Shown: positions 8,180 through 59,087, counted from the first letter of the stretch. The stretch is DNA of 64,000 nucleotides from Pyrinomonadaceae bacterium (GCA_036387195.1 DASVUF010000006.1:294-64293), one strand, 5' to 3'. The notes: a model not told the origin generated them from the letters alone. Translations and numbers: made by a program.

Positions 8180-9247
8180 ATGAGCAGCACAGAGAGCAAG
8201 CCGGCGGGCGCGCCGCCCTTCGGCGGCGTCAGGCGGCGCGCCGTCAGCGCGGAGGGGGCGTCGTGGGTCAGGGCGGAGCCGCCGGCCGGAGGCGGGCGCG
8301 GGCCCGTCGTCCTCTCGCCGGCCGTCGCCGACGTGAACCTCGTCTCGTGGGCGGGCGAGCACCGCGCGCTGATAGAAGGCCACCTGCTCAGGCACGGGGC
8401 GGCGCTCTTCCGCGGCTTCGAGGTGGGGGGGGCCGAGGGCTTCGAGCAGTTCATCCGGGCCGTCTCCGGCGAGCCGCTCGAATACCGCGAGCGCTCGTCG
8501 CCGCGCCACCAGGTTCACGGGCGCGTCTACACCTCGACGGACTACCCCGCGCACCAGCGCATCTTCCCCCACAACGAGAACTCGTACCAGCACGTCTGGC
8601 CGATGAAGCTCTTCTTCTTCTGCCGGACGCCGGCCGAGCGCGGCGGCGAGACGCCGACCACCGACACACGCGAACTCCTCCGCCTCCTGAACCCGGCCAC
8701 CGTGGCGCGCTTCGCCGAGCGGGGCTGCATGTACGTGCGCAACTTCGACGACCAGTTCGGGCTCCCCTGGCAGACCGTCTTCCAGACCGACGACCCGGCC
8801 GAGGCCGAGGGTTATTGCCGCGCCGCCGGCATCTCCGCCGAATGGGTGGGCGGGGGCCGGCTGCGGACGCGCGCCGTGCGCCCGGCGGTCGCCGCGCACC
8901 CCCTGACGGGCGAGCGCGTCTGGTTCAACCACGTCGCCTTCTTTCACGTCTCGACGCTCGACCCGCCCATCCGCGACGGCCTGCTGGCGACGATGAGCGA
9001 GGACGAGCTGCCCTCGAACACTTATTACGGGGACGGCTCGCCCATCGAGCCCGAAGTGCTCGACGAAATACGCGACGCCTACCGCCGCGCGACCGTCTCC
9101 TTCCCGTGGCGGCGCGGCGACCTCCTGCTGCTCGACAACATGCTGACGGCCCACTCGCGCGAGCCCTACGAGGGGCGGCGCGAAGTCCTCGTCGGGATGT
9201 CGGAGCCTCACGGGCCGGGGGCGGCGGCGGGGGCGCCGCCGGCGTGA
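8180..9247 (+). CDS. TauD/TfdA-family Fe(II)/2-oxoglutarate dioxygenase, SyrP-like NRPS-associated beta-hydroxylase
   Basis: 'YPAHQRIFPHNENSYQ' (His-x-acidic metal site), 'WFNHVAFFH', 'LLLLDNMLTAHSREPY' (distal His/Arg). It sits between NRPS genes. Confidence 0.85.
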   Translation: MSSTESKPAGAPPFGGVRRRAVSAEGASWVRAEPPAGGGRGPVVLSPAVADVNLVSWAGEHRALIEGHLLRHGAALFRGFEVGGAEGFEQFIRAVSGEPLEYRERSSPRHQVHGRVYTSTDYPAHQRIFPHNENSYQHVWPMKLFFFCRTPAERGGETPTTDTRELLRLLNPATVARFAERGCMYVRNFDDQFGLPWQTVFQTDDPAEAEGYCRAAGISAEWVGGGRLRTRAVRPAVAAHPLTGERVWFNHVAFFHVSTLDPPIRDGLLATMSEDELPSNTYYGDGSPIEPEVLDEIRDAYRRATVSFPWRRGDLLLLDNMLTAHSREPYEGRREVLVGMSEPHGPGAAAGAPPA

Positions 9248-9316: not shown

Positions 9317-12300
9317 ATGCAGACGACTATCGCAGAGGGCTTCGGGCTCTCGCCCCAGCAGCGGCGGCTGTGGTCGCTGATGGGCCGGGGCGGCGGCGCG
9401 GCCTACCGCGTGCAGTGCGCCGTGCTGGTCGAAGGGCCGCTCGGCGCGCCGGCCCTGAAGGCGGCGCTCGAAGCCGTGGCGGCGCGCCACGAAATCCTGC
9501 GCACGAGCTTCCACCTGCTGCCCGGCCTGAACGTGCCCGTCCAGGTCATCGGCGAGGGCGGGGTCGAGTGGGGGCCTGAGGTCGAGCTGTCGGACGCCCC
9601 CGCGCCCGAGCAACAGGCGGCCGTCGAAAGCATGTTCGCGACGCTGAAGGGCGCGCCGCCCGACCCCGCCCGGGGGCCGCTCGTGCGCGCCTCCCTGCTG
9701 CGTCTGGGGCCGGGAAAGAAAATCCTTCTGCTGGACCTGCCGGCCCTCTGCGCCGACGCGGCGAGCATGCACATCCTGCTCGGCGAGTTGGCGAGCGCCG
9801 TCTCCGCGCCCGCCGACTTCGCCGCGGCCGACGCCCCCGCACAGTACGCGGACGTCTCCGAGTACTTGTCGCAGCTTCTCGAAGACGGGGGGCCCGGCCT
9901 CGACTATTGGCAGGCTTTCAACCTCGCGGAGCTGGCCGCGCGCCGGCCGCACTTCGCGCGCCGGTCGGCCGAGGCCGGGGACTTCCAGACGCGGCGCATC
10001 AGCAGGGGGCTCGCGCCCGGCCTGGCGGCGCGGGTCGAAGGCGCCGCGCGCGCCCACGGCTCCACGCCCGAGCTGTTCCTGCTGGCCTGCTGGCACGCGC
10101 TGCTGTGGCGGGTCACGGGTTGGGGCGAGGTGGTCGTCGGCGTCGCCTTCGACGGCCGGCGGCTCGAAGGGCTCGCCGGCGTGCCCGGCGCCCTCGCCAA
10201 GCACCTCCCGCTCGACGCGAGGCCCGAGGCGGGGGCGAGCTTCGCGCGGCTGCTCACGCAGGTCGGCGAGCGCGCCGCGGCGCACGGCCAGTGGCAGGAC
10301 TTCTTCGACTGGGGCGCCGCCGAGACGAAGGAGGCTTACCTGCCGCTGTGCTACGACTACGCGGAACTCGGCGCGCGGCGTCGGGCGGGCGACGCAGCCC
10401 TGTCCGCGCTCAGCCTCAGCTCACACGGCGAGCGCTTCGACCTCAAGCTCTCCTGCGTCAGGAGAGACGGCGAGCTGTCCGCGGAGTTCTACTTCGACCC
10501 GCGGCGGTGCGAGGCGCGCGTCGTCGAGTGTCTGGCGGAAGAGTTCGCCGCGCTGGCCGAGAACGCCGCGGCGGCCCCCGGGACGCCGCTCGCCGAGCTG
10601 AGCATGCTCGACGCGCCGACGCGCCGGCGGCTGCTCGGCGAGTTCAACCGCACGGCGGCGCCCGTCCCCGGCGCGATGTACGTCCACCGGATGATAGAAG
10701 AGCAGGCGCGGCTGAAGCCGGGCGCGGAGGCCGTCGTCTGCGGCGGCGAGCGTCTGAGCTACGCCGAGTTGAACGAGCGCGCCAACCGGCTGGCGCATCA
10801 CCTCGCGGCCCGCGGGGTCGGGCCCGACGTGCTCGTCGGCCTCTGCTTCGAGCGTTCGGCCTCCATGCTCGTGGCGATGCTCGGCGTGCTCAAGGCGGGC
10901 GGCGCCTACCTGCCCTTAGACCCCTCGTACCCGCGCGAGCGCCTCGCCTTCATGGTCGATGACGCGCGCCTCGAACTGCTCGTCACCGAGGGGCGGCTGG
11001 CGGAGCGGCTGGAACCGTGCGCGGCCGACCTCGTGCTTCTCGACGAAGCGCGCGCGGCGCTCGCCGGGCAGGGCGACGAGAACCCGGCCGTCGCCCTGCG
11101 GGACGAAAACCTCGCCTACGTCATCTACACGTCGGGCTCGACGGGGCGGCCCAAGGGCGTGATGGTGACGCACGGCGGGCTGCTGAATTATGTGAGTTGG
11201 AGCCGCCGCGCCTACCGCGTCGCGGAGGGGCGCGGCGCCGCCGTCTCTTCGTCCTTCGCCTTCGACCTGACGGTCACTGCGCTCTTCCCGCCGCTCGCCG
11301 AGGGGCGCGGCCTCGTCCTGCTCGGCGAAGACGCCACGGGCGAGCTGCTGGCGGACGCGCTCCGGGGCCGGCCCGACTTCAGCCTCATCAAGATAACCCC
11401 CGCCCACCTCAAGCTGCTCTCGCTACTGCTCGCGCCGCAGGAGTTGGAGGGGGCCACGCGCGCGCTGGTCGTCGGCGGCGAGGCGCTGCACGCCGAAAGC
11501 CTCGCCCCCTGGCGCGAGCACGCCCCCGCGACCAGAATCATCAACGAGTACGGCCCGACCGAGACGGTCGTCGGCTGCTGCGTCTACGAGGTCGGCGACG
11601 GGGCCGAACGCCACGGCCCCGTCCCCATCGGCCGCCCCATCGCCAACACGCAGGTCTACGTGCTCGACGGGCGGATGGAGCCGGCGCCGCCGCTGGCGGC
11701 GGGCGAGATTTATATCGGCGGGGCCGGCGTCGCCCGCGGCTACCTCGACCGCCCGGCGCTGACGGCCGAGCGGTTCGTCCCCGACCCGTTCTCGTCGGAG
11801 GGGGGTGCGCGGCTCTACCGCACGGGCGACCTCGGGAGGCACGGCGCCGACGGCGCCATCGAATTCCTCGGCCGCCGCGACGAGCAGGTCAAGGTCAAGG
11901 GCTACCGCATCGAGCCGGGCGAAATCGAGGCCGCGCTGTGCGAGGCGCCCGAGGTGCGCGAGGCCGTCGTCGTCGCGCGTGAAGAGTCGGGCGAGAAGCA
12001 ACTCGTGGGCTACGTGACGCTGCGCGCGGGGGCCGCCTCGGGCGCCGCCGAACTGCGCAGGCGCCTGCGGCGCAAGCTGCCGGAGCACATGATTCCCGCC
12101 GCCTTCGTCATCCTCGGCAGGCTGCCGCTCACGCCCAACGGGAAGGTGGATCGCGGGGCGCTGCCGGAGCCCGACATGACGCGCCCCGAACACGACGCGG
12201 GCTACGCCGCGCCGCGGACGCCGACCGAGCAACTGCTCGCCGAGCTGTGGGCCAGGGCGCTCGGCCAGGAGCGCGTCGGCGTCCACGACAACTTCTTCGA

Positions 12301-13909
12301 GATAGGCGGCGACTCCATCCTCAGCATCCAAATTGCCAACCGCGCCCACGCGGCGGGCGTGCGTCTCACGCCGCGACAAATCTTCCAGCACCGCACCGTC
12401 GCGGAACTCGCCGCCGTGGTGGAGCCGGTGCGGGAGGCCGGCCCAGAGGCGGGCGGCGGCCGCGACGAGCAGGGCGTGGCGCGGGACGCGCCGCTGACGC
12501 CGATACAGCACTGGTTCTTCGAGCAGCGGCTCCCCGAGCCGCACCACTGGAACCAGTCGGTCATGCTCGAAGTCCGCCACCCGCTCGACCCCTCCGTCAT
12601 CGAGGAGGCGTGGCGGCGCCTGGTGGCGCAGCACGACGCTCTGCGCCTGCGCTTCGAGGCCGCGGACGGCGGCTGGCGTCAGCGCTGCCTGCCGCCGGGC
12701 GAGGGCGAGGGCGGGCTGCTGGCGCGCGCGTCTCTGGCCTCGACGCCGGAGGCCGAGCAGGAGGAGGCGCTGGCGTCGTTCGCCGCCTCGTTCCAGCGGA
12801 CGCTCGACCTCGGCGCCGGCCCGGTCGTGCGCGCCGCCTTCATCGAACTCGGCGGGCGGCGTCCTCCGCGCCTGCTGATAGCCGCGCACCACCTCTGCGT
12901 GGACATCGTCTCCTGGGGCGTCCTGCTCGACGGGCTCAACTCGGCCTGCGCGCAACTGACGCGCGGCGCCGAGGTGACGCTGCCGCCGAAGACGACGACG
13001 TTCGCGGCGTGGGCGGCGCGGCTCGAAGAGTACGCGAAGTCGGGGCGGCTGCGGGACGAGCTGAGCTACTGGGCGGCCGACGAGCGGCGCTGGGCCCCGC
13101 GCCTCCCGGTGGACTACCCCTCCGGCGCGAACACGGAGGAGTCTTCGCGGACGCTGTGGGCGTCGCTCGACGAGGAGCGGACGCGGGCGCTCTTGCAGGA
13201 TGTCCCGAAGGTCTACCGCACGATGATTAACGACGTGCTGCTGACGGCCCTCGTCCAGTCGTTCTCCGCGCGGACGCGCGCGCGCTCGCTGCTGGTGGAC
13301 CTGGAGAACCACGGGCGCGAAGACCTCTTCGACGACGTTGACCTGTCGCGCACCGTCGGCTGGTTCACGTGCATCTTCCCGCTGGTGCTCGACCTCGGCG
13401 AGGCGGCGGGCCTCGGGCAAGTCATCAAGTCTGTGAAGGAGCAAGTGCGGAGCGTCCCGGCCGGCGGCGTCGGCTACGGGCTGCTGCGCTACATGAGCGG
13501 CGACGCCGAGGCGGCGAGGCGGCTGCGCGAGCTGCCGCAGGCCGAACTCTGCTTCAACTACGTCGGGCGCGGCGGGAGGGGCGCGTCGGGCGACGAGCCG
13601 TTCGCCGCGCTCGAAGGCCCGACGGGGCCGACGAAGAGCCCGCGCGGCGCGCGGCGCTACCTCATCGAGATTAACGGCGGGGTCGCGGGCGGGCGGCTGC
13701 GCGTGGCGTGGACGTACAGCGAGAACGTGCACCGGCGCGAGACGGTCGAGGGGTTCGCGGCCGGCTTCATCCGGGCGCTGGAGGCCATCGTCGACCACTG
13801 CCTCTCGCCGGAGGCCGGCGGCTTCACGCCCTCGGATTTCGCGCTCGCCGGCGTCAGCCAGAGTGAACTCGACAGCCTCGTGGCTGAACTCGGCGGGTAC
13901 AAGGAGTAG
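9317..13909 (+). CDS. NRPS module: His-less C-like domain - A (Asn/Asp-like code) - PCP - epimerase
   Basis: The N-terminal ~430 aa have a C fold, but the HHxxxDG site reads 'LPALCADAAS' (9731-9766). A domain 'LAYVIYTSGSTGRPKG', 'NEYGPTE', 'YRTGDL', 'PLTPNGKVDR'. By-eye specificity residues are D-L-T-K-V-G-E-V-G-K. PCP 'FFEIGGDSILS' (Ser 12314-12316). E domain 'AAHHLCVDIVSW' (His 12887-12892). Confidence 0.93.
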   Translation: MQTTIAEGFGLSPQQRRLWSLMGRGGGAAYRVQCAVLVEGPLGAPALKAALEAVAARHEILRTSFHLLPGLNVPVQVIGEGGVEWGPEVELSDAPAPEQQAAVESMFATLKGAPPDPARGPLVRASLLRLGPGKKILLLDLPALCADAASMHILLGELASAVSAPADFAAADAPAQYADVSEYLSQLLEDGGPGLDYWQAFNLAELAARRPHFARRSAEAGDFQTRRISRGLAPGLAARVEGAARAHGSTPELFLLACWHALLWRVTGWGEVVVGVAFDGRRLEGLAGVPGALAKHLPLDARPEAGASFARLLTQVGERAAAHGQWQDFFDWGAAETKEAYLPLCYDYAELGARRRAGDAALSALSLSSHGERFDLKLSCVRRDGELSAEFYFDPRRCEARVVECLAEEFAALAENAAAAPGTPLAELSMLDAPTRRRLLGEFNRTAAPVPGAMYVHRMIEEQARLKPGAEAVVCGGERLSYAELNERANRLAHHLAARGVGPDVLVGLCFERSASMLVAMLGVLKAGGAYLPLDPSYPRERLAFMVDDARLELLVTEGRLAERLEPCAADLVLLDEARAALAGQGDENPAVALRDENLAYVIYTSGSTGRPKGVMVTHGGLLNYVSWSRRAYRVAEGRGAAVSSSFAFDLTVTALFPPLAEGRGLVLLGEDATGELLADALRGRPDFSLIKITPAHLKLLSLLLAPQELEGATRALVVGGEALHAESLAPWREHAPATRIINEYGPTETVVGCCVYEVGDGAERHGPVPIGRPIANTQVYVLDGRMEPAPPLAAGEIYIGGAGVARGYLDRPALTAERFVPDPFSSEGGARLYRTGDLGRHGADGAIEFLGRRDEQVKVKGYRIEPGEIEAALCEAPEVREAVVVAREESGEKQLVGYVTLRAGAASGAAELRRRLRRKLPEHMIPAAFVILGRLPLTPNGKVDRGALPEPDMTRPEHDAGYAAPRTPTEQLLAELWARALGQERVGVHDNFFEIGGDSILSIQIANRAHAAGVRLTPRQIFQHRTVAELAAVVEPVREAGPEAGGGRDEQGVARDAPLTPIQHWFFEQRLPEPHHWNQSVMLEVRHPLDPSVIEEAWRRLVAQHDALRLRFEAADGGWRQRCLPPGEGEGGLLARASLASTPEAEQEEALASFAASFQRTLDLGAGPVVRAAFIELGGRRPPRLLIAAHHLCVDIVSWGVLLDGLNSACAQLTRGAEVTLPPKTTTFAAWAARLEEYAKSGRLRDELSYWAADERRWAPRLPVDYPSGANTEESSRTLWASLDEERTRALLQDVPKVYRTMINDVLLTALVQSFSARTRARSLLVDLENHGREDLFDDVDLSRTVGWFTCIFPLVLDLGEAAGLGQVIKSVKEQVRSVPAGGVGYGLLRYMSGDAEAARRLRELPQAELCFNYVGRGGRGASGDEPFAALEGPTGPTKSPRGARRYLIEINGGVAGGRLRVAWTYSENVHRRETVEGFAAGFIRALEAIVDHCLSPEAGGFTPSDFALAGVSQSELDSLVAELGGYKE

Positions 13910-13911: not shown

Positions 13912-21102
<7,191 letters not shown>

Positions 21103-21166: not shown

Positions 21167-22522
21167 ATGGCACAAGCAATCCAAGTCGAAAAATCATCCG
21201 GCCGCGGGATGTGGGGGTTCACCGTAATGTGGTTCGGGCAGACCGTCTCGATGCTCGGGACGGACCTGACCGCCTTCGCGCTCGGCGTGTGGATTTATCA
21301 GAACACGGGCTCGGTGACGCAGTACTCGCTCATCATCCTCTGCGCCAAGCTGCCGAGCATCGCGCTGGCGCCCATCGCCGGCGCCATCATCGACCGCCAC
21401 GACCGCCGCTGGCTGATGATTCTCAGCAACGCCTGCGCGGCGCTCTGCACGATGACGCTCTCGCTGCTCTTCTATCAGGGCTGGCTGAGGCTCTGGCACA
21501 TCTGCGTGGTGATGGTCGTGCTCTCGATGTCCGAGTCCATCCTGCGCCCGGCCTTCAACGCCTCGGTCTCGCTGCTCGTGCCGAAGCGCCACCTCGGCCG
21601 CGCCAGCGGGATGGTGCAGTCCGGCCAGGCCGCGGCGCAAATCCTCGCGCCGCTGATGGCCGGCGTCCTCATCACCACCATCCAGATGCAGGGCGTGCTG
21701 GTCATAGACTTCTTCACGTACGTCGTCGCCACGGCGGCGCTGCTCGTCGTCCGCATCCCGTCGCCGGAGACGACGGCCGAGACGGCGGCCGCGAAGGGCT
21801 CGCTGCTGCGCGAGGCGGCCTTCGGCTGGAAGTACGTCATCGCCCGGCCCGGCATCTTCGCCCTGCTCGGCTTCCTGGCCGTCACCAACTTCATCGTGTC
21901 GGTCTCCAACATCCTCATCACGCCGTTGGTGCTCAGCTTCGCCGACCCGAGGACCTTCGGCATTGTGCTGTCGGTGACGGGGACGGGCGTTCTGGTGGGC
22001 GGCCTCGTCATGAGCCTCTGGGGGGGGCCGAAGCGCCGCATCTACGGCGTCGTCTTCTACGGCGTCGTGCAGGGCGTGTCGCTCATCTTCCAGGGGCTCT
22101 GGCCGAGCGCCGTGCTCATCACCGCGGCGCTCTTCTTCGCGGCCTTCAGCGCGCCCGTCATGAACGCGAGCTTCGTCCCCATCCTCCAGAGCAAGACCCC
22201 GCCCGACGTGCAGGGGCGCGTGTTCGCCGCCGTGCGGCTGATGTCGTGGGGCTCGGTGCCCATCGCCTACCTGCTGGCCGGCCCGCTCTCCGACAGGGTC
22301 TTCGAGCCGCTCATGGCGGCGGGCGGCCCGCTGGCCGGCAGCGTCGGGCGGCTCATCGGGACGGGGCCGGGCCGCGGCATCGCGCTGCTCTACATGCTTA
22401 TGGGGGTGGTCATGCTGCTGGCGACGCTGCGCACCTACCTCTACCCGCGGGTGCGTAATATCGAGAACGAGATGGCCGACGCTATCCCCGACGAGGAGCC
22501 GGCCGTCGCCGCCGGGGGGTGA
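21167..22522 (+). CDS. MFS transporter (EntS/macrolide-efflux-like exporter)
   Basis: Hydrophobic profile of about 12 TM segments. MFS loop motif 'GAIIDRHDRRWLM'. It lies directly downstream of the TE-containing NRPS. Confidence 0.8.
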   Translation: MAQAIQVEKSSGRGMWGFTVMWFGQTVSMLGTDLTAFALGVWIYQNTGSVTQYSLIILCAKLPSIALAPIAGAIIDRHDRRWLMILSNACAALCTMTLSLLFYQGWLRLWHICVVMVVLSMSESILRPAFNASVSLLVPKRHLGRASGMVQSGQAAAQILAPLMAGVLITTIQMQGVLVIDFFTYVVATAALLVVRIPSPETTAETAAAKGSLLREAAFGWKYVIARPGIFALLGFLAVTNFIVSVSNILITPLVLSFADPRTFGIVLSVTGTGVLVGGLVMSLWGGPKRRIYGVVFYGVVQGVSLIFQGLWPSAVLITAALFFAAFSAPVMNASFVPILQSKTPPDVQGRVFAAVRLMSWGSVPIAYLLAGPLSDRVFEPLMAAGGPLAGSVGRLIGTGPGRGIALLYMLMGVVMLLATLRTYLYPRVRNIENEMADAIPDEEPAVAAGG

Positions 22523-22597: not shown

Positions 22598-25048
22598 ATG
22601 CGTATATTCTGGCAGGACGTCCGCTTCGCCATGCGCTCGATGCTGACGAGCTACGTCTTCACGGGCGTGGCCATCATTACCCTGGCCCTCGGGATAGGGG
22701 CCAACACGGCGCTCTTCTCGGTCGCCAGCGGGGTCCTCCTGCGCTCGCTGCCGTTCGCCGAGCCCGAGCGCATCGTCTTCGTCTGGATCAGCAACCCGCG
22801 CCGGCAGATGGACGTCAACAAGCTCCCGGCGCCGGCCGCCGACTTCCTCGACTGGCGCGCCCAGAACCGCAGCTTCGACAAGATGTCGGCTTTCTATTCG
22901 AGCCCGTTCACGCTGACGGGGGCCGCCGCGCCCGAACGCATCGAGGCCGTGCGGGCGACCGCCGACTTCTTCGACGTCCTCGGCGCGAAGGCCGCGAAGG
23001 GGCGCACCTTCATCGCCGGCGAAGACCGGCCGGGGAACGACCGCGTCGTCATCCTCAGCGACGGCTTCTGGAAGCGCCGCTTCGGGGCCGACCCGGCCGT
23101 CGTCGGCAAGACGCTGACGCTCGACGGCGCCCCCCACGAGGTCATCGGCGTCATGCCCGAAGAGTTCAACTTCCCGCAGGGGCCGTCCATGCCGCCCTAC
23201 CTCCAGTTCCCGCTGCGGCCCGAGCTGTGGGCGCCGCTCTCCTTCAGCGACGAGGCGGCGGGCAACCGGCGCACGTTCAACCTCGCCACCATCGCGCGGC
23301 TCAAGCCGGGCGTCACGGTGGCGCAGGCGCAGTCCGACATGAGCGGCGTCGCCGCGGGCATAGACCAGCAGTACAGGAAGAGTTCCGGCTACGGCACGGA
23401 CCTCGTCGAGATGCGCGAGCAACTGGTGGGCGACGTGCGGACGGCGCTGCTGGTGCTGCTCGTCGCCGCCGGGCTGGTGCTGCTCGTCTCGTGCGTGAAC
23501 GTCTCGAACCTGCTGCTGGCGCGCTCGGCGCGGCGTCAGCAGGAGATGGCCCTGCGCTCGGCGCTCGGCGCGCGGCGCGGCCGCCTCGTGCGGCAGTTGC
23601 TCACGGAGAGCGTCGTGCTCGCGCTGGTGGGCGGCGTGCTGGGGCTGCTGCTGGCGAACTGGGGCACGCAACTGCTGCTGTCCATGAGCCCGAGCAGCAT
23701 CCCGAACGCCGGCGAGATCGGCATTGACGCGCGCGTGCTCGGCTTCACGTTCGCGGCCGTTCTGCTGGCCGGCGTCGTCTCCGGCATCCTGCCGGCGCTC
23801 CAGGCCTCGCGCACGGACCTCAACTCGCTGCTGCGCGGCGAGGGGCGCGGCTCGACGCCGGGCGCGCGCAGCCGGCGCGTGCGCAACCTGCTCGTCACGG
23901 CCGAGGTCGGCCTCGCGCTGCTGCTCCTCATCGGGGCGGGCCTGCTCGCGCGCAGCTACATGCTGCTGAATCAGGTCAAGCTCGGCTTCGACCCCGACAA
24001 GGCGCTCACGATGCATTTCGTCCTGCCCGATTACAAGTACACGGAAGACCGGATGAGCCTCGCCTTCTTCGACCAACTGCTGCCCCGGCTGGCGGCGGCG
24101 CCCGGCGTCGAGTCGGTCGGCCTCGTCTCGAACCTCCCCCTGAGCGGGGCGGCCACGAGCATCACCTTCACCATCGAGGGGCAGCCGCCCCCCTCGCCGC
24201 AGGACCGCCCGCTCGCCGACTACACCCTCGTCACGCCCGGCTTCTTCGACGCGCTCCGCATCCCGGTCGTGCGCGGCCGCCCCTTCGGCGATCAGGACAC
24301 GGCCACGTCGCCCGGCGTCGTCCTCATCAACGAGGCGATGGCCAGGCGCTACTGGCCGGGCGAGGACGCGGTCGGGAAGACCATCTCCGTGTCGGGCGGG
24401 AAGTACGCGGGGCGGCGGCAGGTCGTCGGGGTCGTGTCCAACGTCAGGCGCGCGTCGCTGAGCGACGAGCCGCGCCCCGAGATGTACGTGCCCTACGCGC
24501 AGCAGCCGGAGAGGTACGTCTACATGGTCGTGCGCACGCGCGAGAACCCGCTCGGCCTCGCGCCGGTCGTGCGGGGCGAGGTGCTGGCGATAGACAGGGA
24601 CCAGCCGGTCACGCAAGTCCGGACGATGGCGCAGGTGGTCACCGACTCCGAGTCGAGGAGGCGGTTCAACCTCCTGTTGATGTGCCTGTTCGCGGGGCTG
24701 GCCCTTGTGCTCGCCCTCGTCGGCATCTACGGCGTGGTGGCCTATTCCGTTACGCAGCGCGCGCACGAGATAGGGATTCGCATGGCCCTCGGCGCCAGAC
24801 CCGGGGCGGTCGTGCGGCTCATCGTCAGGCAGGGGATGTTCCCGGCCCTCGTCGGCACCGTCGGCGGGCTGCTCACCGCCTACGCCCTGACGCGCGTCAT
24901 GTCGAGCATGCTCTACGAAGTCAGCGCCACCGACCCGGCCGTCTTCGTGTGCGCCTCGGCGGCCCTGCTGCTGGTCGCGCTGCTCGCCATCTACCTGCCC
25001 GCGCGCAGGATTACCAAGATTGACCCGGTGACCGTGCTGCGCGAGTAG
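22598..25048 (+). CDS. ADOP-family duplicated MacB/FtsX-type ABC permease (no cognate ATPase adjacent)
   Basis: N-terminus 'MRIFWQDVRFAMRSM...LALGIGANTALFSV'. Two FtsX-type blocks: 'VNVSNLLLARSARRQQEMALRSALGA' and 'GIYGVVAYSVTQRAHEIGIRMALGA'. Large periplasmic domains follow TM1 and TM5. Confidence 0.85.
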   Translation: MRIFWQDVRFAMRSMLTSYVFTGVAIITLALGIGANTALFSVASGVLLRSLPFAEPERIVFVWISNPRRQMDVNKLPAPAADFLDWRAQNRSFDKMSAFYSSPFTLTGAAAPERIEAVRATADFFDVLGAKAAKGRTFIAGEDRPGNDRVVILSDGFWKRRFGADPAVVGKTLTLDGAPHEVIGVMPEEFNFPQGPSMPPYLQFPLRPELWAPLSFSDEAAGNRRTFNLATIARLKPGVTVAQAQSDMSGVAAGIDQQYRKSSGYGTDLVEMREQLVGDVRTALLVLLVAAGLVLLVSCVNVSNLLLARSARRQQEMALRSALGARRGRLVRQLLTESVVLALVGGVLGLLLANWGTQLLLSMSPSSIPNAGEIGIDARVLGFTFAAVLLAGVVSGILPALQASRTDLNSLLRGEGRGSTPGARSRRVRNLLVTAEVGLALLLLIGAGLLARSYMLLNQVKLGFDPDKALTMHFVLPDYKYTEDRMSLAFFDQLLPRLAAAPGVESVGLVSNLPLSGAATSITFTIEGQPPPSPQDRPLADYTLVTPGFFDALRIPVVRGRPFGDQDTATSPGVVLINEAMARRYWPGEDAVGKTISVSGGKYAGRRQVVGVVSNVRRASLSDEPRPEMYVPYAQQPERYVYMVVRTRENPLGLAPVVRGEVLAIDRDQPVTQVRTMAQVVTDSESRRRFNLLLMCLFAGLALVLALVGIYGVVAYSVTQRAHEIGIRMALGARPGAVVRLIVRQGMFPALVGTVGGLLTAYALTRVMSSMLYEVSATDPAVFVCASAALLLVALLAIYLPARRITKIDPVTVLRE

Positions 25049-25103: not shown

Positions 25104-27806
25104 ATGGCAGAGCAAGCGAATGACGTGACGGCGGGGGCGGCGACTGCGGCGGCGGGCGGCCCGCCGCCGCAGCATCTCCTGCCGCTGGAGGAAGGGCAGT
25201 GGGCAATCTGGCGGCTGACGTGCCTGCGCGGCGCGGGCTTCCCCGCCTCGCTGGTGCTCAGGCTGGCGGCCCCCGAGTGCGCCGCCGCCGCGGACCGGGT
25301 GGCCGAGGCCGCGGCCTCGGCCGAGCGCGCCCGGCTCCGCGCCTCGGAGTCCATCAAACTCGCGCTGACGGACATCCGCCGCCGCGGCGAGTGGACGACG
25401 AGCCCCGCCCTCGACCCGCTCCTGCGCGCCCTCAAGCGGGTGAAGGCGGGGGAACCGCCGCGGCCGACGGGCGAGGCGGCGGCCGACGCCGCGGTCGAGG
25501 AGTGGCGCGCCGCGGCCGCCCGGGTGGTCGCGGCGCGGGCCGACTACGCACGCTCGTACGCGGAGGCGGCCGCCCTCACCTCGCAGTCGCTCCGCGAGGT
25601 AATTGCCGACGAATCGTTCCAGGAGGCCGTCATCTGGCAGAACCGGCACGCCTTTAACCGCATCAAGCAATCGCTCTGGAAGGCCCCGGCCGGCGCGCGC
25701 AACAGCAGCCGGCGCCAGAACGAGGAGTTAATCACCAACTACCTCCAGCGTTACTGCGTCAAGAACGACACCATCGGCTTCTTCGGCCCCGTCGGCTGGG
25801 CGCGCTTCGTCCCGTCCGGCGAGGCGCTCGTCGTGCGCCCCGGCGAGCGCCTCCTGGCCTCGCGCAGCGTCTACTTCGAGGGGTGGTGTGTTGACGCGCT
25901 GGCCGAGGCTTTGAATGGCGACGGCGCCCTGCGGCCGTGGCTCGCGCCGCGCCGGCTACCCTTCATCGGCCTCGACGGCGGCGTCATGACCCTGCCCGGC
26001 GGCGCCTCGCTCCCCCTGCCTGCGAAGGACGCGGCCGTCCTCGCCGCCTGCGACGGGCTGCGGACGGCCAGAGAGTTGGCCGCCGGGTTGTTGGGCGCCG
26101 GCGTGGGCGGGCTCGGGACGGAGGAGGAGGTCTACCGGCTGCTGGACGCCTACTGCAAGCGCGGCGTCCTCGTGTGGAAGCTCGAAGTCCCCGTCCAGCA
26201 GAGGGCCGAACGGACGCTGCGCGGGCTGATCGAGAAGGTCGGCGACGAGCGCCTGCGCCGCAGGGGCCTCGGCCTGCTGGACGAACTTGAAGCGGCCCGC
26301 GGCCACGTCTCCTCGGCCGCCGGCGACCCTGAACGGCTGAACCGCGAGCTGAACCACCTGGAAGAGACTTTCAGCCGCCTGACCGGCGCGGCCGCGACGA
26401 GGGCGGCGGGCCAGACCTACGCGGCGCGCACGCTCGCCTACGAAGACTGCCGGCGCGACATCGAGGTTCAAATCGGGCCCGAGGTCTTGGCGGCGCTCGC
26501 GCCGCCGCTCTCCCTGCTGCTGCAAAGCGCGCGCTGGATTTCGCACGAGCTGGCCGGGATGTACCGCGCCGCCTTCCGCGCGGTTTACGCCGAGCTGGCC
26601 GCAAAGCGGCGCTCCCCGGTCGTCCCCGCCGCCGACTTCTGGGTCAAGTGCGACCCCCTGCTGTTCAAGGAGGGCGTGCGAATCGCCGACCGCGTGACGC
26701 CGCTCTTCCAGCAACGCTGGGCGGAGGTGCTGGCGCTCGAACCCGGCGCCCGCCGCGCCGACTTCACCTGCGAGCAACTGCGCCCGCGCGTCGAGGCCGC
26801 CTTCGCCGCGCCCGCCCCCGGCTGGAGCCACGCGCGTTACCACAGCCCCGACGTGATGATAGCCGCCCCGAGCGCCGAGGCCGTCCGGCGCGGCGACTTC
26901 CACCTCGTCATCGGCGAACTGCACCTCGGCGTGAACTCCCTGAACGGCTCGCTGTTCCTCGGGCAGCACCCGCGCCCCGAGGAGATTTACGAGGCCATCA
27001 CGGCGGACTTCGCCGGGCCGCGCATCGTGCCCGTGCCGCCGAAGAGCTGGCCCACGCTGACGGCCCGCACCGTCTTCGAGTTCATCTCGCCCCTCAACTA
27101 CAGGCTCATGATTTCGCCCGACGCGTGCGGCGTCCCGCCCTCCCGCGCGCTGCCCATCAGCGACCTGGTGGTCGAAAACCAGGGCGGCCAACTCGTCTTG
27201 AGGACGCGCGACGGGCGGCTCCGCTACGAGGTCGTGGAGGGCTTCGGCGAGTTCCTGTCGAGCCTCATCATCAACTTCTTCCAACTGTCGCCGCCGCTGC
27301 GCCACACGCCGCGCGTCACCATTGACCGGGTGACCGTCAGCCGCGAGTCGTGGCGCTTCCCGCCTGCCGAACTCGCCTTCGCCAATGAGGCGGACGAGGC
27401 GGCGCGCTTCGCGGCCGCGCGCCGGTGGCAGCGCGGCCACGACCTGCCGCGCTTCCTGTTCGCCAAGACGCCCGTCGAGCGCAAGCCCTTCTACGTTGAC
27501 ATGGAGAGCCCGACCCTCGTCAACATCTTCGCCCGGTTCGTGCGGCGCTCGGCGGAGGCGGGCGGGGCGGACGCCCTCATCACCCTTTCGGAGATGCTCC
27601 CGGCGCAGGAAGACCTCTGGCTGCCGGACGCCGAGGGGCGCCGTTACACCAGCGAGCTGCGCATGGTGACCCTCGACCTCTCCACGGCCCCGGGCGAACA
27701 ACAGGCCGCGGCCGCGTCGCAAAAAACAACTCGTCCGGATGGCCGCCCGGCGCCGCTCGCGGCGCCGCAACCCGCGAAAGTTTCTGACGACTTTCGGCGA
27801 GCTTAA
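25104..27806 (+). CDS. Lantibiotic-dehydratase (LanB) N-terminal/glutamylation-domain family protein lacking the elimination domain (small-LanB / PEARL-like)
   Basis: 'WAIWRLTCLRGAGFP', 'FQEAVIWQNRHAF', 'NYLQRYCVKNDTIGFFGPVGWARF', and C-terminal 'PRVTIDRVTVSRESWRFP...LPRFLFAKTPVERKPFYVDMESPTLV'. The ORF ends about 60 aa after that segment. GGGGGAGGA RBS lies upstream of ATG 25104. Confidence 0.6.
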   Translation: MAEQANDVTAGAATAAAGGPPPQHLLPLEEGQWAIWRLTCLRGAGFPASLVLRLAAPECAAAADRVAEAAASAERARLRASESIKLALTDIRRRGEWTTSPALDPLLRALKRVKAGEPPRPTGEAAADAAVEEWRAAAARVVAARADYARSYAEAAALTSQSLREVIADESFQEAVIWQNRHAFNRIKQSLWKAPAGARNSSRRQNEELITNYLQRYCVKNDTIGFFGPVGWARFVPSGEALVVRPGERLLASRSVYFEGWCVDALAEALNGDGALRPWLAPRRLPFIGLDGGVMTLPGGASLPLPAKDAAVLAACDGLRTARELAAGLLGAGVGGLGTEEEVYRLLDAYCKRGVLVWKLEVPVQQRAERTLRGLIEKVGDERLRRRGLGLLDELEAARGHVSSAAGDPERLNRELNHLEETFSRLTGAAATRAAGQTYAARTLAYEDCRRDIEVQIGPEVLAALAPPLSLLLQSARWISHELAGMYRAAFRAVYAELAAKRRSPVVPAADFWVKCDPLLFKEGVRIADRVTPLFQQRWAEVLALEPGARRADFTCEQLRPRVEAAFAAPAPGWSHARYHSPDVMIAAPSAEAVRRGDFHLVIGELHLGVNSLNGSLFLGQHPRPEEIYEAITADFAGPRIVPVPPKSWPTLTARTVFEFISPLNYRLMISPDACGVPPSRALPISDLVVENQGGQLVLRTRDGRLRYEVVEGFGEFLSSLIINFFQLSPPLRHTPRVTIDRVTVSRESWRFPPAELAFANEADEAARFAAARRWQRGHDLPRFLFAKTPVERKPFYVDMESPTLVNIFARFVRRSAEAGGADALITLSEMLPAQEDLWLPDAEGRRYTSELRMVTLDLSTAPGEQQAAAASQKTTRPDGRPAPLAAPQPAKVSDDFRRA

Positions 27807-27837: not shown

Positions 27838-29691
27838 ATGTCAACCCGGAACGGCGCCCGCGTCGCCTCTCACGCCGCTTCGAGACTCGAACGGCTGCCG
27901 AAGAAATCAGGGCTTAACATAGTCGGAATTTCGACCGGCTATCATGATTCATCGTGCTGCCTGCTGCGGGACGGCCAGATGGTCGCCGCCGCGCAGGAGG
28001 AACGCTTCACGCGTGTGAAGAATGACAAGTCGCTCCCGAAGTGGGCGTTCCGTTATTGCCTTGAGGAGGCCGGGCTCACGATCTCTGACGTTGATTGCGT
28101 CGCCTACTACGAAGACCCGTGCCGCAAACTCGGCCGGCAGATATGGATGGGGATGATGCCCGGCCTGCCGGCGGAGAGGCGCGAGACGATATACGACCGG
28201 CTGGCGAGGACGCAGCCCCAGGAGCAGATACGCAAGCGGCTGGGCTACGAGGGGCGCATTGAAATCTCCGACCACCACCTCTCGCACGCCGCCAGCAGTT
28301 ACTACTTCTCGGGGTTCGGGGATGCGGCCGTCCTGACCGTAGATGGAGTCGGCGATTGGCCCACGACGAGCTACAACGTGGGCCGGGGGGCGCGCCTGGA
28401 GCGTTTCGAGCAGGTCGATTTCCCCGATTCGTTGGGCCTGTTCTACAGCGCCGTGACCAGCTACCTCGGCTTCGAGGTCAACGAAGGCGAGTACAAGGTG
28501 ATGGGGCTCGCGCCCTACGGCCAACCGCTCTACGCCAGGCAGCTCGGGAAGCTGGTGCAGGTGACCTCGGAAGGCCAATACCGCCTCGACATGAAGTATT
28601 TCGCCTTCCTCACGAAAGATTTGATGTACACGGAACACCTCTGTTCCCTGCTCGGGCAGCCGCCGCGAGAGCCGGAGTCAGAGATTACGCAGTTCCACAG
28701 CGACGTGGCGAAAAGCGCGCAGGTCGTGTTGGAGGAGATTCTTCTGGAAAAAACCCGCTACCTCCACAGCAAAGTCCCGAGTGAGAACCTCTGCATGGCG
28801 GGCGGCGTGGCTTTGAATGTGGTGGCCAACAGTCGGTGTTTGAGGGAGGGGCCGTTCAAGCGTCTGTTCGTGCAACCCGCCGCAGGCGACGCCGGCGGGG
28901 CCGTGGGGGCGGCCGCCATCGCGCACGTACGACTCACGGGGGAGGCGCCGACCGGCAAACAACAGGACCACGTCTACCTGGGCCCGGCTTTATCTTCCGC
29001 GGAAGTCCTTCAAATCTTGAAAAGCACCTCGGCCAAGTATCAGGATTTCCGCGGACGGGAAGAGGAGCTGATAGGCTTCACGGTTGACCGACTGGCCGAA
29101 GGGAAAGTAATCGGGTGGGCGCAGGGGCGCATGGAATTCGGCCCCCGGGCGCTCGGCTCTAGGTCTATCCTGGCCGACCCGCGCCGCCATGACATGAGAG
29201 ACAGGATTAACGCGCTGGTCAAGATGCGCGAGGCTTTCCGCCCCTTCGCCCCCGCCGTTCTGGAATCTGAGGCCGCCGGGCATTTCGCCCTGGATCACCC
29301 TTCGCCGTTCATGCTCGAAACCTGCCAGGTGACTTCGCCCGTCGAGCTGCCGGCCATAACGCATGTTGACGGCTCAGCGCGGGTGCAGACGGTGAGCGCC
29401 GAAACGAACCCACGGTTCGCCGCGCTGCTTGAGGAGTTCAAGCGGCGCACCGGGTGTCCCATTCTACTCAACACCTCCTTCAACATGCGCGGCGAGCCCA
29501 TCGTGTGCAACGCGGTCGACGCGCTGATATGTTTCGTCAGGTCCAACATTGACTTCCTCGTCATCGAGGACTTCATTATTGGGCGCGCAGGCATTCCGAT
29601 CTTGTGGGAGATTCTGGCCACACAGGGGGGCCAGAAACATAAGCTCGGCGAGGGCGAGGAGGTAGGCCACCTCGTCTACACTCTGCTGTAG
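27838..29691 (+). CDS. NodU/CmcH/TobZ-family carbamoyltransferase
   Basis: 'NIVGISTGYHDSSCCLLRDGQMVAAAQEERFTRVKNDKSLP', 'LTVDGVGDW', 'CMAGGVALN', 'FVQPAAGDAGGAVGAA', 'GRMEFGPRALGSRSILADPR', 'LLNTSFNMRGEPIV'. Confidence 0.9.
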   Translation: MSTRNGARVASHAASRLERLPKKSGLNIVGISTGYHDSSCCLLRDGQMVAAAQEERFTRVKNDKSLPKWAFRYCLEEAGLTISDVDCVAYYEDPCRKLGRQIWMGMMPGLPAERRETIYDRLARTQPQEQIRKRLGYEGRIEISDHHLSHAASSYYFSGFGDAAVLTVDGVGDWPTTSYNVGRGARLERFEQVDFPDSLGLFYSAVTSYLGFEVNEGEYKVMGLAPYGQPLYARQLGKLVQVTSEGQYRLDMKYFAFLTKDLMYTEHLCSLLGQPPREPESEITQFHSDVAKSAQVVLEEILLEKTRYLHSKVPSENLCMAGGVALNVVANSRCLREGPFKRLFVQPAAGDAGGAVGAAAIAHVRLTGEAPTGKQQDHVYLGPALSSAEVLQILKSTSAKYQDFRGREEELIGFTVDRLAEGKVIGWAQGRMEFGPRALGSRSILADPRRHDMRDRINALVKMREAFRPFAPAVLESEAAGHFALDHPSPFMLETCQVTSPVELPAITHVDGSARVQTVSAETNPRFAALLEEFKRRTGCPILLNTSFNMRGEPIVCNAVDALICFVRSNIDFLVIEDFIIGRAGIPILWEILATQGGQKHKLGEGEEVGHLVYTLL

Positions 29692-29713: not shown

Positions 29714-31894
29714 ATGGAACGCCCGCCAGAATTGCTCAAAGATGTCGCCGACCGGCTGGCCCGCGCCGTCGTCACGGAGGACGGCGCGCAAGTGACCCGC
29801 CTCCTGCGGCTCGCCGGGCTACTCGGGGACCCTTCGAGTCCCGCTCCCGAGCGGTCGCTGACTGACAATATCGGCGGCCGCGAAGGGGCGGGCGAGGCGC
29901 CCGCCGAATCGCCCTCCCCACCCCGAATCGGAATCTGGGAAGGAGAGCAGGTGAACGGCCGGACCTGTTTCGTCCGCCGCCAGGACATGATGGGAGAGTG
30001 GAGCTTCTGGGCGAACGTCGGGCGGATAGAGCCGAAAGGGGACAGACTCCGCATCCTCCTCCTCGGCGAGTCTGTCGCCCGCGGCTATCTTTACGACCCG
30101 TTGTTCAACATGGCCGGCGCGCTGGAGGAGGTCCTCCAATCCCAGCTCGGTGAGGATAACGTCGAGGTCATTGACCTGGCCCGTACGAACCTCGGCCTTG
30201 ACCTGACGGAACTCGCCAGGTCCGCCCTGCTTCTTGAGCCGGACGCGGCCATCATCTTTGCCGGAAACAACTGGAGCGTCCGTTACTACGGCCCGCACCC
30301 ATACGAGCGGGCGGCGCTGGATGCGCAGATACGCAGGCAGGGCGTGCCCGGGTTAAAGCGCGGCTTCGAAGAGCGTCTGGCGGAGCAAGCCAGGAGCGGG
30401 GTCAAAGAGATAGCCTCTCTTTATCAAGCCGAGGGGACGCCGCTGGTCTGGATGGTCCCGGAATTCAACCTCGGCGACTGGCGCGACCCGGTGGCCATCG
30501 CGCCTCACCTGTCGCGGGGAGGCAACCGGGAGTGGCTCGCCCTTTGGGACGGCGCTCGCGACGCCCTGCGCGATGGCGACTTCGAGACGGCCGCGGACCT
30601 GGCGAAGCAGATGGTTCAGCTTGACGGCGGGACCACGGCCACGGGTTTGTACATCCTGGCCGAGTGCAGTCAACAACTGGGCGACCCGGTCGCGGGCAGG
30701 CGCTACCTCGAACTGGCCCGGGACGCGACGATCTGGGACTGCTCCCGCGCCATCTCGCCGAGGCCGTACACCGTGACGCAGGAAGTTCTGCGCGAGGAGG
30801 CGGTAAGGAGCCGGAATGAGGTCGTGGATGTGCCTGAGGTTTTCAAAGAATACCTGGACGGGGGCATCCCTGACCGCCGCCTGTTCCTGGACTACTGCCA
30901 CCTAACGTCCGAGGGGATTCGAGTCGCCGCGGCGGCCGCCGCCTCTCGCGTGCTGCGCTTGCTTGAGGGGGTGGACATCCACTGGCGCGAGCTAGTGGAC
31001 AGGAGTGTAGCGCCGCCCCCTGAGGTGGAGGCGGAGGCGTCTTTCCTGGCCGCCGTACACAACGCGCACTGGGCGCAGCCCTTCGACGTGGTCCGCCACT
31101 ACTGTCTGAGGGCTGTCGAGTTGTCGCCGTCCGTCGCGCAAATCATGGTCCGTTTCCTTGACCTCCAGACCCGGAGTGCTCCGCTGATGATGTGCCGGTC
31201 GGCGGAAGAGATCGCCATGTGGGGGTCGGAGCTGATGCAGCACTACCTTCTTCACCATAACCGCCAGCAGTTAGACAAGACCCTCCTTGACGCCGTGGTC
31301 GGGGCACTGGAGGGGGCGGGCATCAACGCCGGCGGCCAACTCGCTCAGCTCCGCCGGGAAGAACACAGCGTGGCGTCGCGCGACGTCAACCTGCTGGATT
31401 ACTACTACGTGTCGTCCGCGCGCCAGGCGCAGGAAGAGACATGGCTGATACCTCAACTGCAAAAGTTGAATGAGGCGAAGAATTACTACACCGCCTATTT
31501 GCGCGAATCCAGGTTTTTCTTTGTCGGCGATGCGAACCGCCCCGTGCGGCTGCGCCTCACCTGCCGTCTGCCTGAGTCGGAGAGTGACGAGGGGGCCATC
31601 TCAATTGAGGTGAACGGCGGCCGCGTCGGGGACGCGGTCATCGGCCGCCAATGGAGCGCCTGGGAGATCGAAGTGGCCGGCGGCGAGGTGCGCGACGGCC
31701 TGAACGAAGTAGTCATCCGCTGGCCGACGCCGGCATTCCCCGGTGACAAGCTGTTCGAGTCCCTGATTGAACGCGTAACCGACAAATCCCTGCCGGAGTT
31801 CTTCTGCCCGTTCGGTGAAATATATGCCTTCTCGGCGTCGGACGCGGGCGACGGCTCTGACGTGATGAAGCAGCCGTCCCCGGCCGGACATTGA
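29714..31894 (+). CDS. SGNH/GDSL-fold hydrolase-like protein with a large C-terminal extension of unknown function
   Basis: Block I 'RILLLGESVARG', block III 'IIFAGNNW', block V 'LDYCHLTSEG' (D-x-x-H). The last ~300 aa have no motif I recognise. Confidence 0.5.
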   Translation: MERPPELLKDVADRLARAVVTEDGAQVTRLLRLAGLLGDPSSPAPERSLTDNIGGREGAGEAPAESPSPPRIGIWEGEQVNGRTCFVRRQDMMGEWSFWANVGRIEPKGDRLRILLLGESVARGYLYDPLFNMAGALEEVLQSQLGEDNVEVIDLARTNLGLDLTELARSALLLEPDAAIIFAGNNWSVRYYGPHPYERAALDAQIRRQGVPGLKRGFEERLAEQARSGVKEIASLYQAEGTPLVWMVPEFNLGDWRDPVAIAPHLSRGGNREWLALWDGARDALRDGDFETAADLAKQMVQLDGGTTATGLYILAECSQQLGDPVAGRRYLELARDATIWDCSRAISPRPYTVTQEVLREEAVRSRNEVVDVPEVFKEYLDGGIPDRRLFLDYCHLTSEGIRVAAAAAASRVLRLLEGVDIHWRELVDRSVAPPPEVEAEASFLAAVHNAHWAQPFDVVRHYCLRAVELSPSVAQIMVRFLDLQTRSAPLMMCRSAEEIAMWGSELMQHYLLHHNRQQLDKTLLDAVVGALEGAGINAGGQLAQLRREEHSVASRDVNLLDYYYVSSARQAQEETWLIPQLQKLNEAKNYYTAYLRESRFFFVGDANRPVRLRLTCRLPESESDEGAISIEVNGGRVGDAVIGRQWSAWEIEVAGGEVRDGLNEVVIRWPTPAFPGDKLFESLIERVTDKSLPEFFCPFGEIYAFSASDAGDGSDVMKQPSPAGH

Positions 31895-35365: not shown

Positions 35366-35389
35366 AATGGTAAGGCGCGGCCCGACGAT

Positions 35390-45749: not shown

Positions 45750-45816
45750 CGGACTTTCGCGCGCGTGTTCGTTCGAGGGTCGCTCTCTATCTCGCCCGGC
45801 CGGGAAAGGGCAGGCG

Positions 45817-46599: not shown

Positions 46600-46618
46600 C
46601 CGGACGCGTTCGGAACTG

Positions 46619-49018: not shown

Positions 49019-49029
49019 ATTCAGAGCCC

Positions 49030-55791: not shown

Positions 55792-55978
55792 ATATCGGTC
55801 GAAGGCGCTTCTCGCCTGATAACGTATGGCAGGCGCCCGGCGCAGGATGACCGAGGCGGACATCCCGGCGACGCCCTGGCGTGTGGTGGCCTCCGTCGCC
55901 CTGCTCGACTCCGCTACTCTACAGCCCGGCGTATACAAGCGGCGCGGGAGTCGCCCGCTTCGCCGAAGGAGATAAGTG

Positions 55979-59053: not shown

Positions 59054-59063
59054 CGCGCGGGCG

Positions 59064-59087
59064 GCCTGCGGCGGCGCCGCCGCAGGC
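59064..59087 (+). terminator. Perfect 24-nt GC palindrome directly after the fusion gene's stop (hairpin, no U-tract)
   Basis: 'gcctgcggcggc|gccgccgcaggc'. A second hairpin lies at 59131-59163 ('gccgcacggcc' ... 'ggccgtgcggc', 11-nt loop). Confidence 0.3.

Follow-up and report, generated by a model that had tools for sequence, protein, structure and literature searches.

A LanB-fold protein resembling SnaE in an acidobacterial NRPS/PKS cluster, and its family

LanB-like genes have reportedly been remarked on in some non-ribosomal peptide synthetase (NRPS) clusters, in work by Ortega in 2015 and by Repka in 2017. NRPS and polyketide synthase (PKS) clusters that encode a 'lantibiotic dehydratase' and no precursor or carrier peptide are the subject of Yu and van der Donk (ACS Cent Sci 2024; PMC11212132), where SnaE, an 845-residue protein from the sna NRPS-PKS cluster of Stackebrandtia nassauensis (product threopeptin), is described as a tRNA-dependent peptide aminoacyl ligase (PEARL) that joins Thr to the free carboxylate of an NRPS product. 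SnaE is the sole characterised NRPS-associated PEARL, and a broader class was predicted from it (PMC11212132). There the free carboxylate is produced by a ureido-forming condensation (C) domain with the signature EHHxxHDG, and the use of a PEARL is explained by the ureido linkage, which leaves the carboxylate beyond the reach of the assembly line (PMC11212132). PEARLs of ribosomally synthesised and post-translationally modified peptide (RiPP) pathways, namely TglB, BhaB1, BhaB5, BhaB7 and AmmB2, go back to Ting et al. (2019, as cited in PMC11962472). Here we analyse a stretch of 64,000 nucleotides from a Pyrinomonadaceae bacterium (GCA_036387195.1 DASVUF010000006.1:294-64293; hereafter the window), in which a 900-residue open reading frame (ORF) at positions 25104-27806 encodes a LanB-like protein behind an NRPS/PKS line. 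The original prediction, made from this DNA alone, held that a PEARL-like enzyme with its scaffold encoded elsewhere, a tailoring enzyme of the NRPS/PKS product and a partner of the downstream carbamoyltransferase were all conceivable and that none was a described arrangement; this last statement was mistaken, because the SnaE arrangement had been published in 2024 (PMC11212132). We consider it reasonably probable, if far from certain, that the protein is an NRPS-associated PEARL of the SnaE type, which would use a charged tRNA to add one amino acid to the lipopeptide of the neighbouring line. We show below its fold, the family to which it belongs, its signature residues and that the tie to NRPS genes is conserved.

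A LanB fold with the PEARL signature

The ORF opens with an ATG, immediately 5' of which lies the Shine-Dalgarno-like run GGGGGAGG, and the encoded protein carries the motifs WAIWRLTCLRGAGFP at residue 33, FQEAVIWQNRHAF at residue 172, NYLQRYCVKNDTIGFFGPVGWARF at residue 212, PRVTIDRVTVSRESWRFP at residue 736 and LPRFLFAKTPVERKPFYVDMESPTLV at residue 781. Its sole Pfam match is PF04738 (Lant_dehydr_N; E 2.5e-42; 145 bits, where the cutoff is 28), and no NCBIfam model matches it. When the single sequence is searched against PDB sequences with phmmer no meaningful match is returned, but a profile of its family reaches TbtB (6EC7). An AlphaFold2 model computed with 20 relatives as input (pLDDT 80, pTM 0.79) finds TbtB as its best Foldseek match over the full length (6EC8; E 5e-24, TM 0.60/0.67), with GodF next and then the glutamylation parts of MibB, MadB and NisB, all of these matches spanning the whole length at E-values of 5e-24 to 1e-14. 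The assignment of the protein to the LanB fold, as a member of the PF04738 superfamily, lies far beyond chance. There is no elimination domain, because the ORF stops about 45 residues past the last conserved motif.

Within the model, residues 289-352 (window 25968-26159) form a subdomain of three strands and three helices that resembles a RiPP recognition element (RRE) and bears a family-conserved ACDGxRTA motif. Foldseek relates it weakly to the lasso RRE TbiB1 (E 4.1), and a Pfam search of the subdomain gives no PqqD/RRE match, so that the resemblance is one of topology and of this weak structural match.

What separates PEARLs from dehydratases within this fold is a small set of residues (SI Fig S12 of PMC11212132). 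The Arg and Lys of the motif QRxxxKNDT bind the tRNA 5'-phosphate and are common to dehydratases, while the Gln of the same motif and a C-terminal E-x-R are specific to PEARLs and needed for ATP-dependent phosphorylation; dehydratases retain just the acidic residue of this Q/E/R set (PMC11212132). The window protein carries Q215-R216...K220 as well as E851-L852-R853. We fetched 79 related loci with flanks of up to 10 kb, clustered all their ORFs, and found 85 near-full-length relatives in them, counting tandem copies and fused domains; Q215, R216 and K220 are kept in 85/85 of these and E851 and R853 in 84/85, the one relative that differs having an alignment gap there. R42 lies in the conserved N-terminal motif and, to judge by its place in it, is likely the counterpart of Arg34 in BhaB7 and Arg10 in TglB, the comparison residues being taken from PMC11962472.

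For SnaE, which is not itself among the fetched loci, the comparison uses two fragments from the literature, 58 and 38 residues long. On these the hidden Markov model (HMM) of the family scores 47.8 and 22.4 bits, and on published motif fragments of RiPP-type PEARLs it scores 39 bits (BhaB7), 30.5 bits (TglB), 24 bits (BhaB5) and lower (BhaB1, AmmB2), against at most 2.3 bits for any LanB or TbtB dehydratase fragment. Because of the Q/R/K and E-x-R signature and of these profile scores, we classify the window protein, by sequence, as PEARL-like rather than as a dehydratase, and SnaE, as judged on the published fragments, as its probable nearest characterised relative.

The partners of a lanthipeptide or thiopeptide dehydratase were sought throughout. 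Pfam scans of the gene-like ORFs across the window returned neither a PF14028 elimination domain nor a match to LanC (LANC_like) or YcaO, and the gaps flanking the gene, at 22-137 nt, leave no room for a precursor gene. The window contains no tRNA gene and no gene for a scaffold or carrier peptide, nor is any peptide ORF conserved across the 79 related loci, in which the one small ORF that is conserved beside family members encodes an MbtH-like protein, a kind of ORF that is missing from the window. Since elimination domain, precursor and cyclase were all looked for and not found, we do not regard the locus as a lanthipeptide or thiopeptide dehydratase system. Up to this point the original prediction holds well: all the motifs that it quoted from the ORF are present, the LanB-family identity that it proposed is borne out by the PF04738 match and by the Foldseek matches to TbtB and NisB, and the lack of an elimination domain agrees with a Pfam check of PF04738 versus PF14028 in which only PF04738 was found. 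Its description of a locus without LanC, YcaO or visible precursor is likewise upheld by the Pfam scans and the short gaps, which reveal no ordinary RiPP locus, and the PEARL-like nature that it suggested is supported by Q215, R216, K220, E851 and R853.

A family linked to NRPS genes across phyla

Proteins of about 860 residues with the LanB_N domain alone form a large and tight family. The best 120 database matches of the 900-residue protein share 47-86% identity with it, a scan of species-representative genomes yielded at least 573 relatives, and the family profile, run against 1.84 billion representatives of 50%-identity clusters, gave 1900 matches at E<=1e-30, the top 150 of which each exceed 888 bits. 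The hosts include Acidobacteriota, Ktedonobacteria, Herpetosiphonaceae, one cyanobacterium, Gemmatimonadota and actinomycetes (Kitasatospora, Streptomyces, Micromonospora, Salinispora).

Where at least 5 kb of sequence is available on both sides, NRPS genes lie within 10 kb of the family member in 37 of 43 related loci. A TE-terminated NRPS (TE, thioesterase) stands upstream on the same strand in 11 related loci, a homologue of the ADOP permease occurs in 20, typically immediately upstream of the PEARL gene, and a homologue of the major facilitator superfamily (MFS) transporter adjoins the PEARL gene in 10. Recurrent neighbours are ATP-binding cassette (ABC) exporters, a type II thioesterase, a phosphopantetheinyl transferase (PPTase), a CmlA-like hydroxylase and an M28 peptidase, together with an SbnA/SbnB-like pair, which suggests a supply of 2,3-diaminopropionate, and a gene resembling ornithine carbamoyltransferase (OTCase). 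The recurrence of the latter means that carbamoyl transfer recurs near the family through an enzyme that is not homologous to the one in the window. The SbnB/SbnA-like pair consists of ornithine-cyclodeaminase-like and PALP genes; these and the OTCase-like carbamoyltransferase (ORF clusters c4, c6 and c7) recur among the loci L004, L011, L015, L023, L026, L027, L035, L038 and L050.

Several loci carry tandem PEARL copies directly after an NRPS-TE/MFS/ADOP arrangement: three in L003 (7774-15604), two in L004 (7282-12526) and two each in L011 and L046. The signature residues are intact in all of these paralogues, which suggests, by analogy with the bha and amm RiPP pathways, that such copies may perform successive tRNA-dependent additions.

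In other lineages the domain is part of the synthetase itself. It lies within proteins of more than 1500 residues in 11 of the 85 near-full-length cases, and a Pfam scan of three long proteins identified them as fusions of condensation, adenylation (A) and carrier (T) domains with the PEARL domain, that is, C-A-T-PEARL. These have a Val-like A domain (DALWLGG) and a length of about 1900-2200 residues (L071:757-7287, L059:1303-7152, L065:6584-12484); fused PEARL domains are also found in L067, L074, L075, L077, L080 and L081 and in the proteins P0255 and P0268. The hosts are Salinispora pacifica CNR114 (L071), Micromonospora, Actinophytocola and Streptomyces, C-A-T genes and an FAD monooxygenase gene follow, and the fused domains keep all catalytic residues. 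In three further loci the PEARL gene begins 13-50 nt after an NRPS ORF with an A-T terminus (L010:6630-8429, L025:1405-3204, L051:8125-9924) or overlaps it by 40 nt; these NRPS ORFs have no TE, the flank shows no release domain, and the pairs resemble the fused architecture split in two. Where an NRPS ORF stands directly before a stand-alone PEARL gene, three loci have an A-T terminus, two have T-TE, and C and T-reductase occur in one locus each. One Streptomyces protein, 1419 residues long (L076:8288-12547), has its PEARL domain after an N-terminal region of about 700 residues without a Pfam match. Searches of the accessible literature turned up nothing on NRPS-PEARL fusions or on acidobacterial LanB-like genes beyond the 2024 SnaE paper.

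The assembly line, the acceptor and competing explanations

The gene follows an assembly line that the window shows whole but for the N-terminal part of its first domain, and the cluster comprises the following genes, all on the plus strand (ACP, acyl carrier protein; KS, ketosynthase; AT, acyltransferase; E, epimerisation; C*, degenerate C domain).

5..4291, plus: fatty-acyl-AMP ligase (FAAL; N-terminal part cut by the window edge)-ACP-KS-AT, start of the line (Pfam AMP-binding, PP-binding, ketoacyl-synt, Acyl_transf_1)
4339..8136, plus: ACP-aminotransferase-C, C motif MHHIVSDG (Pfam PP-binding, Aminotran_3, Condensation)
8180..9247, plus: TauD-family iron/2-oxoglutarate (Fe/2OG) oxygenase (Pfam TauD, E 5e-50)
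9317..13909, plus: NRPS C*-A-T-E, A code DLTKVGEV (Pfam and motif/code extraction)
13912..21102, plus: NRPS C-A-T-C-A-T-TE, end of the line, A codes DILQFGLI (Gly-like) and DVWHMSLVD (Ser-like)
21167..22522, plus: MFS efflux transporter (Pfam MFS_1)
22598..25048, plus: ADOP-family duplicated MacB/FtsX-type permease (NCBIfam TIGR03434, 991 bits)
25104..27806, plus: LanB-fold enzyme, assigned to the PEARL type (SnaE-like), without elimination domain (900 residues; Pfam, family alignment and model)
27838..29691, plus: NodU/CmcH-type carbamoyltransferase (Pfam Carbam_trans_N and Carbam_trans_C)
29714..31894, plus: unannotated 726-residue protein, last gene of the cluster (SGNH-like core, TPR-like insert, beta-sandwich)

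The genes from the TE-terminated NRPS to the 726-residue protein form an operon-like block on one strand with gaps of 22-76 nt, and when these gaps were scanned for promoters and terminators nothing exceeded shuffled expectation. The block of NRPS-TE, MFS, ADOP, PEARL, carbamoyltransferase and 726-residue protein is kept in the closest orthologous loci, L082 and L083 (85-86% identity), which diverge right after the last of these genes, one continuing with an IS110 transposase and the other with a PQQ protein; we place the end of the cluster at 31894 because of this divergence.

The module at 4339..8136 is one that we take, by comparison with MycA, to be mycosubtilin/iturin-like, and it would make a beta-amino fatty acyl starter. 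The A-domain codes were taken by alignment to the GrsA core, and DLTKVGEV suggests Asn or Asp by the Stachelhaus codes; for Gly and Ser the reference codes are those of PMC10634486. From the order of the line and these codes, the predicted scaffold is a beta-amino-fatty-acyl-D-Asn/Asp-Gly-Ser lipopeptide, and the TauD-family protein is likely an amino-acid beta-hydroxylase, to judge by its family. The condensation-like domain at residues 1-450 of the C*-A-T-E protein (window 9317-10650) has DLPALCAD in place of the catalytic HHxxxDG and directly follows the intact C domain that ends the previous protein; it could be a docking or scaffolding domain.

For the reaction itself, we infer every step, as well as which carboxylate accepts the new residue and which residue this is. 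FAAL-ACP-KS-AT, ACP-aminotransferase-C, C*-A-T-E and C-A-T-C-A-T-TE would together build a short lipopeptide, a tripeptide on a beta-amino-fatty-acyl starter, with the predicted residues D-Asn/Asp (possibly hydroxylated), Gly and Ser in that order. By homology, the enzyme would bind ATP and phosphorylate a free carboxylate of this lipopeptide by means of Q215, E851 and R853; R216 and K220 would grip the 5'-phosphate and the CCA end of the aminoacyl-tRNA, R42 would lie close to the reacting groups, and the alpha-amine of the tRNA-borne amino acid would attack the acyl phosphate. Hydrolysis of the tRNA ester would then leave a lipopeptide longer by one residue, which the carbamoyltransferase and the SGNH-like protein may decorate and the MFS and ADOP transporters may export. 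As no ureido-forming C domain is present, the acceptor must differ from the SnaE-type carboxylate; most likely, reasoning from the layout of the line, it would be the C-terminal carboxylate freed by the TE, which is favoured in the window because a TE is present and the gene sits after the exporters. Alternatives would be the side chain of Asp, if the first A domain loads Asp, or a carrier-bound intermediate, the latter being suggested for other family members by the T-PEARL fusions.

Several points weigh against this proposal. The C domains of the window lack EHHxxHDG (their motifs are MHHIVSDG, HHHLLLDG and MHHIIFDG, beside one degenerate C and one E domain), the signature occurs in just 1 of the 39 related loci that have C domains, and it is found in none of the actinomycete clusters with a fused PEARL. 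Chain reversal by such a ureido-forming C domain (Curea), the rationale for a PEARL in the SnaE system, therefore cannot account here for a PEARL in the place of one more NRPS module. A TE that cyclises the product would leave no C-terminal carboxylate, and the predicted Asn, Gly and Ser offer none on their side chains unless the first residue is Asp. The retained RRE-like subdomain with its conserved ACDGxRTA is of a kind that binds the leader peptide in RiPP enzymes, the likeness to SnaE was measured on fragments of 58 and 38 residues, and the support as a whole comes from sequence and model comparison.

A different site of action is conceivable, in that the enzyme could work in line on a peptide tethered to a carrier (T) domain, extending or decorating its carboxylate or aiding its off-loading. 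The actinomycete fusions, with their Val-like A domain and the C-A-T genes next to them, fit such a role, as do the A-T-ending NRPS ORFs that abut the PEARL gene in L010, L025 and L051, and T-bound intermediates are named as possible substrates in the SnaE paper (PMC11212132). In the window, however, two transporter genes separate the PEARL gene from an NRPS whose line has its own TE, and even the fused forms keep the residues for ATP-dependent phosphorylation, which points to a free carboxylate rather than to an activated thioester; we therefore regard the in-line role as unlikely here. Chemistry closer to that of LanB, in which Glu from Glu-tRNA is placed on the hydroxyl of Ser or hydroxy-Asn to give a stable ester, or dehydroalanine with the help of an unrecognised eliminating partner, would draw on a fold and Pfam family that are those of the LanB/TbtB glutamylation domain and on a last NRPS module predicted to load Ser. 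Such a course seems very improbable given that the PEARL-only Q, E and R are present and essentially invariant, that the family profile scores no more than 2.3 bits on dehydratase fragments against 30-70 bits on PEARLs, and that no PF14028 was found in the window.

It is also conceivable that the protein is a classical RiPP-type PEARL with a scaffold peptide whose gene lies in another part of the genome, and that its proximity to the NRPS is a coincidence, which would agree with its signature residues, with the retained RRE-like subdomain and with a source that is a metagenome-assembled genome inspected in minor part. The NRPS linkage across phyla (37/43 loci) and the covalent fusions to NRPS modules make a scaffold elsewhere unlikely, and since, in addition, orthologous loci keep the gene within the NRPS operon and the MbtH-like protein is the only conserved small ORF near the family, we give this explanation but a slim chance. 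The slightest chance goes to a non-biosynthetic role, be it self-protection or inactivation together with the ADOP and MFS exporters, for example by masking an antibiotic carboxylate, or that of a decayed, inactive relic. In its favour is the ADOP homologue, found together with the PEARL gene in 20 related loci and typically immediately upstream of it; against it, exporters are ordinary members of biosynthetic clusters, the ORF is intact with its catalytic residues conserved, and other lineages have the PEARL domain joined to NRPS modules in one protein. Release of the lipopeptide followed by tRNA-dependent extension is thus the reading that we retain. It agrees with two statements of the original prediction, the NRPS/PKS line upstream of the gene, which the Pfam domains confirm, and the tailoring of its product, for which the 37/43 loci with NRPS genes, the C-A-T-PEARL fusions and the lack of a conserved carrier peptide argue.

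The third role that had been proposed, a partnership with the downstream carbamoyltransferase, fares otherwise. No homologue of the carbamoyltransferase or of the 726-residue protein with its SGNH-like core is found in any of the 79 related PEARL loci, and we reject the partnership on this co-occurrence, the carbamoyltransferase pairing with the 726-residue family elsewhere: in 3/3 contexts from other Acidobacteriota (L084, L085, L086) a carbamoyltransferase of 615-616 residues stands directly upstream of a 726-residue-type gene, beside NRPS genes, with no Lant_dehydr_N gene within 8 kb. The 726-residue protein, which has no match in Pfam or NCBIfam, combines an SGNH-like core (GES118, GNN184, DxxH393) with a helical insert resembling tetratricopeptide repeats (TPR) and a CBM35-like C-terminal beta-sandwich, and its family numbers 942 matches, is acidobacterial and frequently occurs in tandem copies. 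The two genes have a GC content at third codon positions (GC3) of 0.80, against 0.92-0.96 in the neighbouring genes. They are a separate, separately acquired tailoring cassette joined to the cluster and not partners of the PEARL.

Beyond the cluster, genes of a polysaccharide type (FkbM methyltransferase, Wzt ABC ATPase, glycosyltransferases, DegT aminotransferase and AsnB-like asparagine synthase) occupy 32032-36544 on the minus strand and 44562-52355. Those at 32032-36544 were considered as cluster members and rejected, as the orthologous loci diverge before them; by this comparison the polysaccharide-type genes appear to lie outside the NRPS cluster. A 416-residue ORF at 32032-33282 has no Pfam match. 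The region 55976-63368 encodes a 1025-residue protein with trypsin-like, EEP and non-specific endonuclease domains, a protein with EAD1 and a trypsin-like protease, and an NTPase with EAD1, AAA_16 and TPR, and looks like a conflict-system locus.

Wider significance and relation to known systems

A broader and more doubtful proposal, which we offer tentatively, is that the family constitutes a large, cross-phylum clade of NRPS-coupled PEARLs independent of ureido chain reversal, and that tRNA-dependent amide ligation could be a general second elongation system for assembly lines. If this is true, the clade would take the form of stand-alone genes after TE-terminated lines, of tandem arrays of two to three copies that add residues in turn and of in-line C-A-T-PEARL domains, and the RRE-like subdomain with its ACDGxRTA motif may dock onto a synthetase or carrier domain in place of a leader peptide. 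Since the signatures are kept without the special case of the ureido linkage, the recruitment of charged tRNA into non-ribosomal synthesis is probably commoner and mechanistically more varied than the single characterised example, and it appears to be especially common in uncultured soil Acidobacteriota. Genome-mining tools that label such genes as lanthipeptide or thiopeptide markers would then misclassify clusters, and product predictions made from A domains alone would be short by one residue or more. Compared with the published case, it is new that chain reversal is lacking, that the clade is large and phylogenetically widespread, that tandem arrays occur and that the domain is fused in line as C-A-T-PEARL.

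TbtB (6EC7/6EC8), GodF (9JHQ), NisB, MibB and MadB are the best structural matches of the protein, and it shares with them the Arg and Lys that bind the tRNA 5'-phosphate but just 9-18% sequence identity in structural alignments. TbtB, GodF and the LanBs glutamylate Ser and Thr and need a PF14028 partner and a precursor, both of which are absent here, whereas Q215 and R853 of the window protein belong to the PEARLs and have no counterpart in dehydratases. The RiPP-type PEARLs have the same fold without an elimination domain, the same Q/R/K and E-x-R signature and, presumably, the same mechanism of ATP activation followed by attack of the aminoacyl-tRNA, and the presence of several PEARL paralogues in one locus, seen in related loci, is known from the bha and amm clusters. 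These enzymes, however, have as substrate a ribosomal scaffold peptide whose gene adjoins theirs, of which none was found here, and their motif regions are less similar to the family (24-39 bits for TglB, BhaB5 and BhaB7, against 70 bits for SnaE, on the fragments compared).

SnaE is the characterised protein that scores best against the family profile on these fragments. It has in common with the window protein a length of about 850-900 residues with the LanB_N domain alone, the motifs EAVxWQN, YxQRYxxKNDTIGFF and WLPxxxGxxYTSELRxV, and a gene that lies inside an NRPS/PKS cluster with transporters alongside and no carrier peptide. The window differs in having no ureido-forming C domain, as do 38 of the 39 related loci with C domains, in belonging to the Acidobacteriota where SnaE comes from the Actinomycetota, and in a scaffold that is predicted to be a beta-amino fatty acyl lipopeptide.

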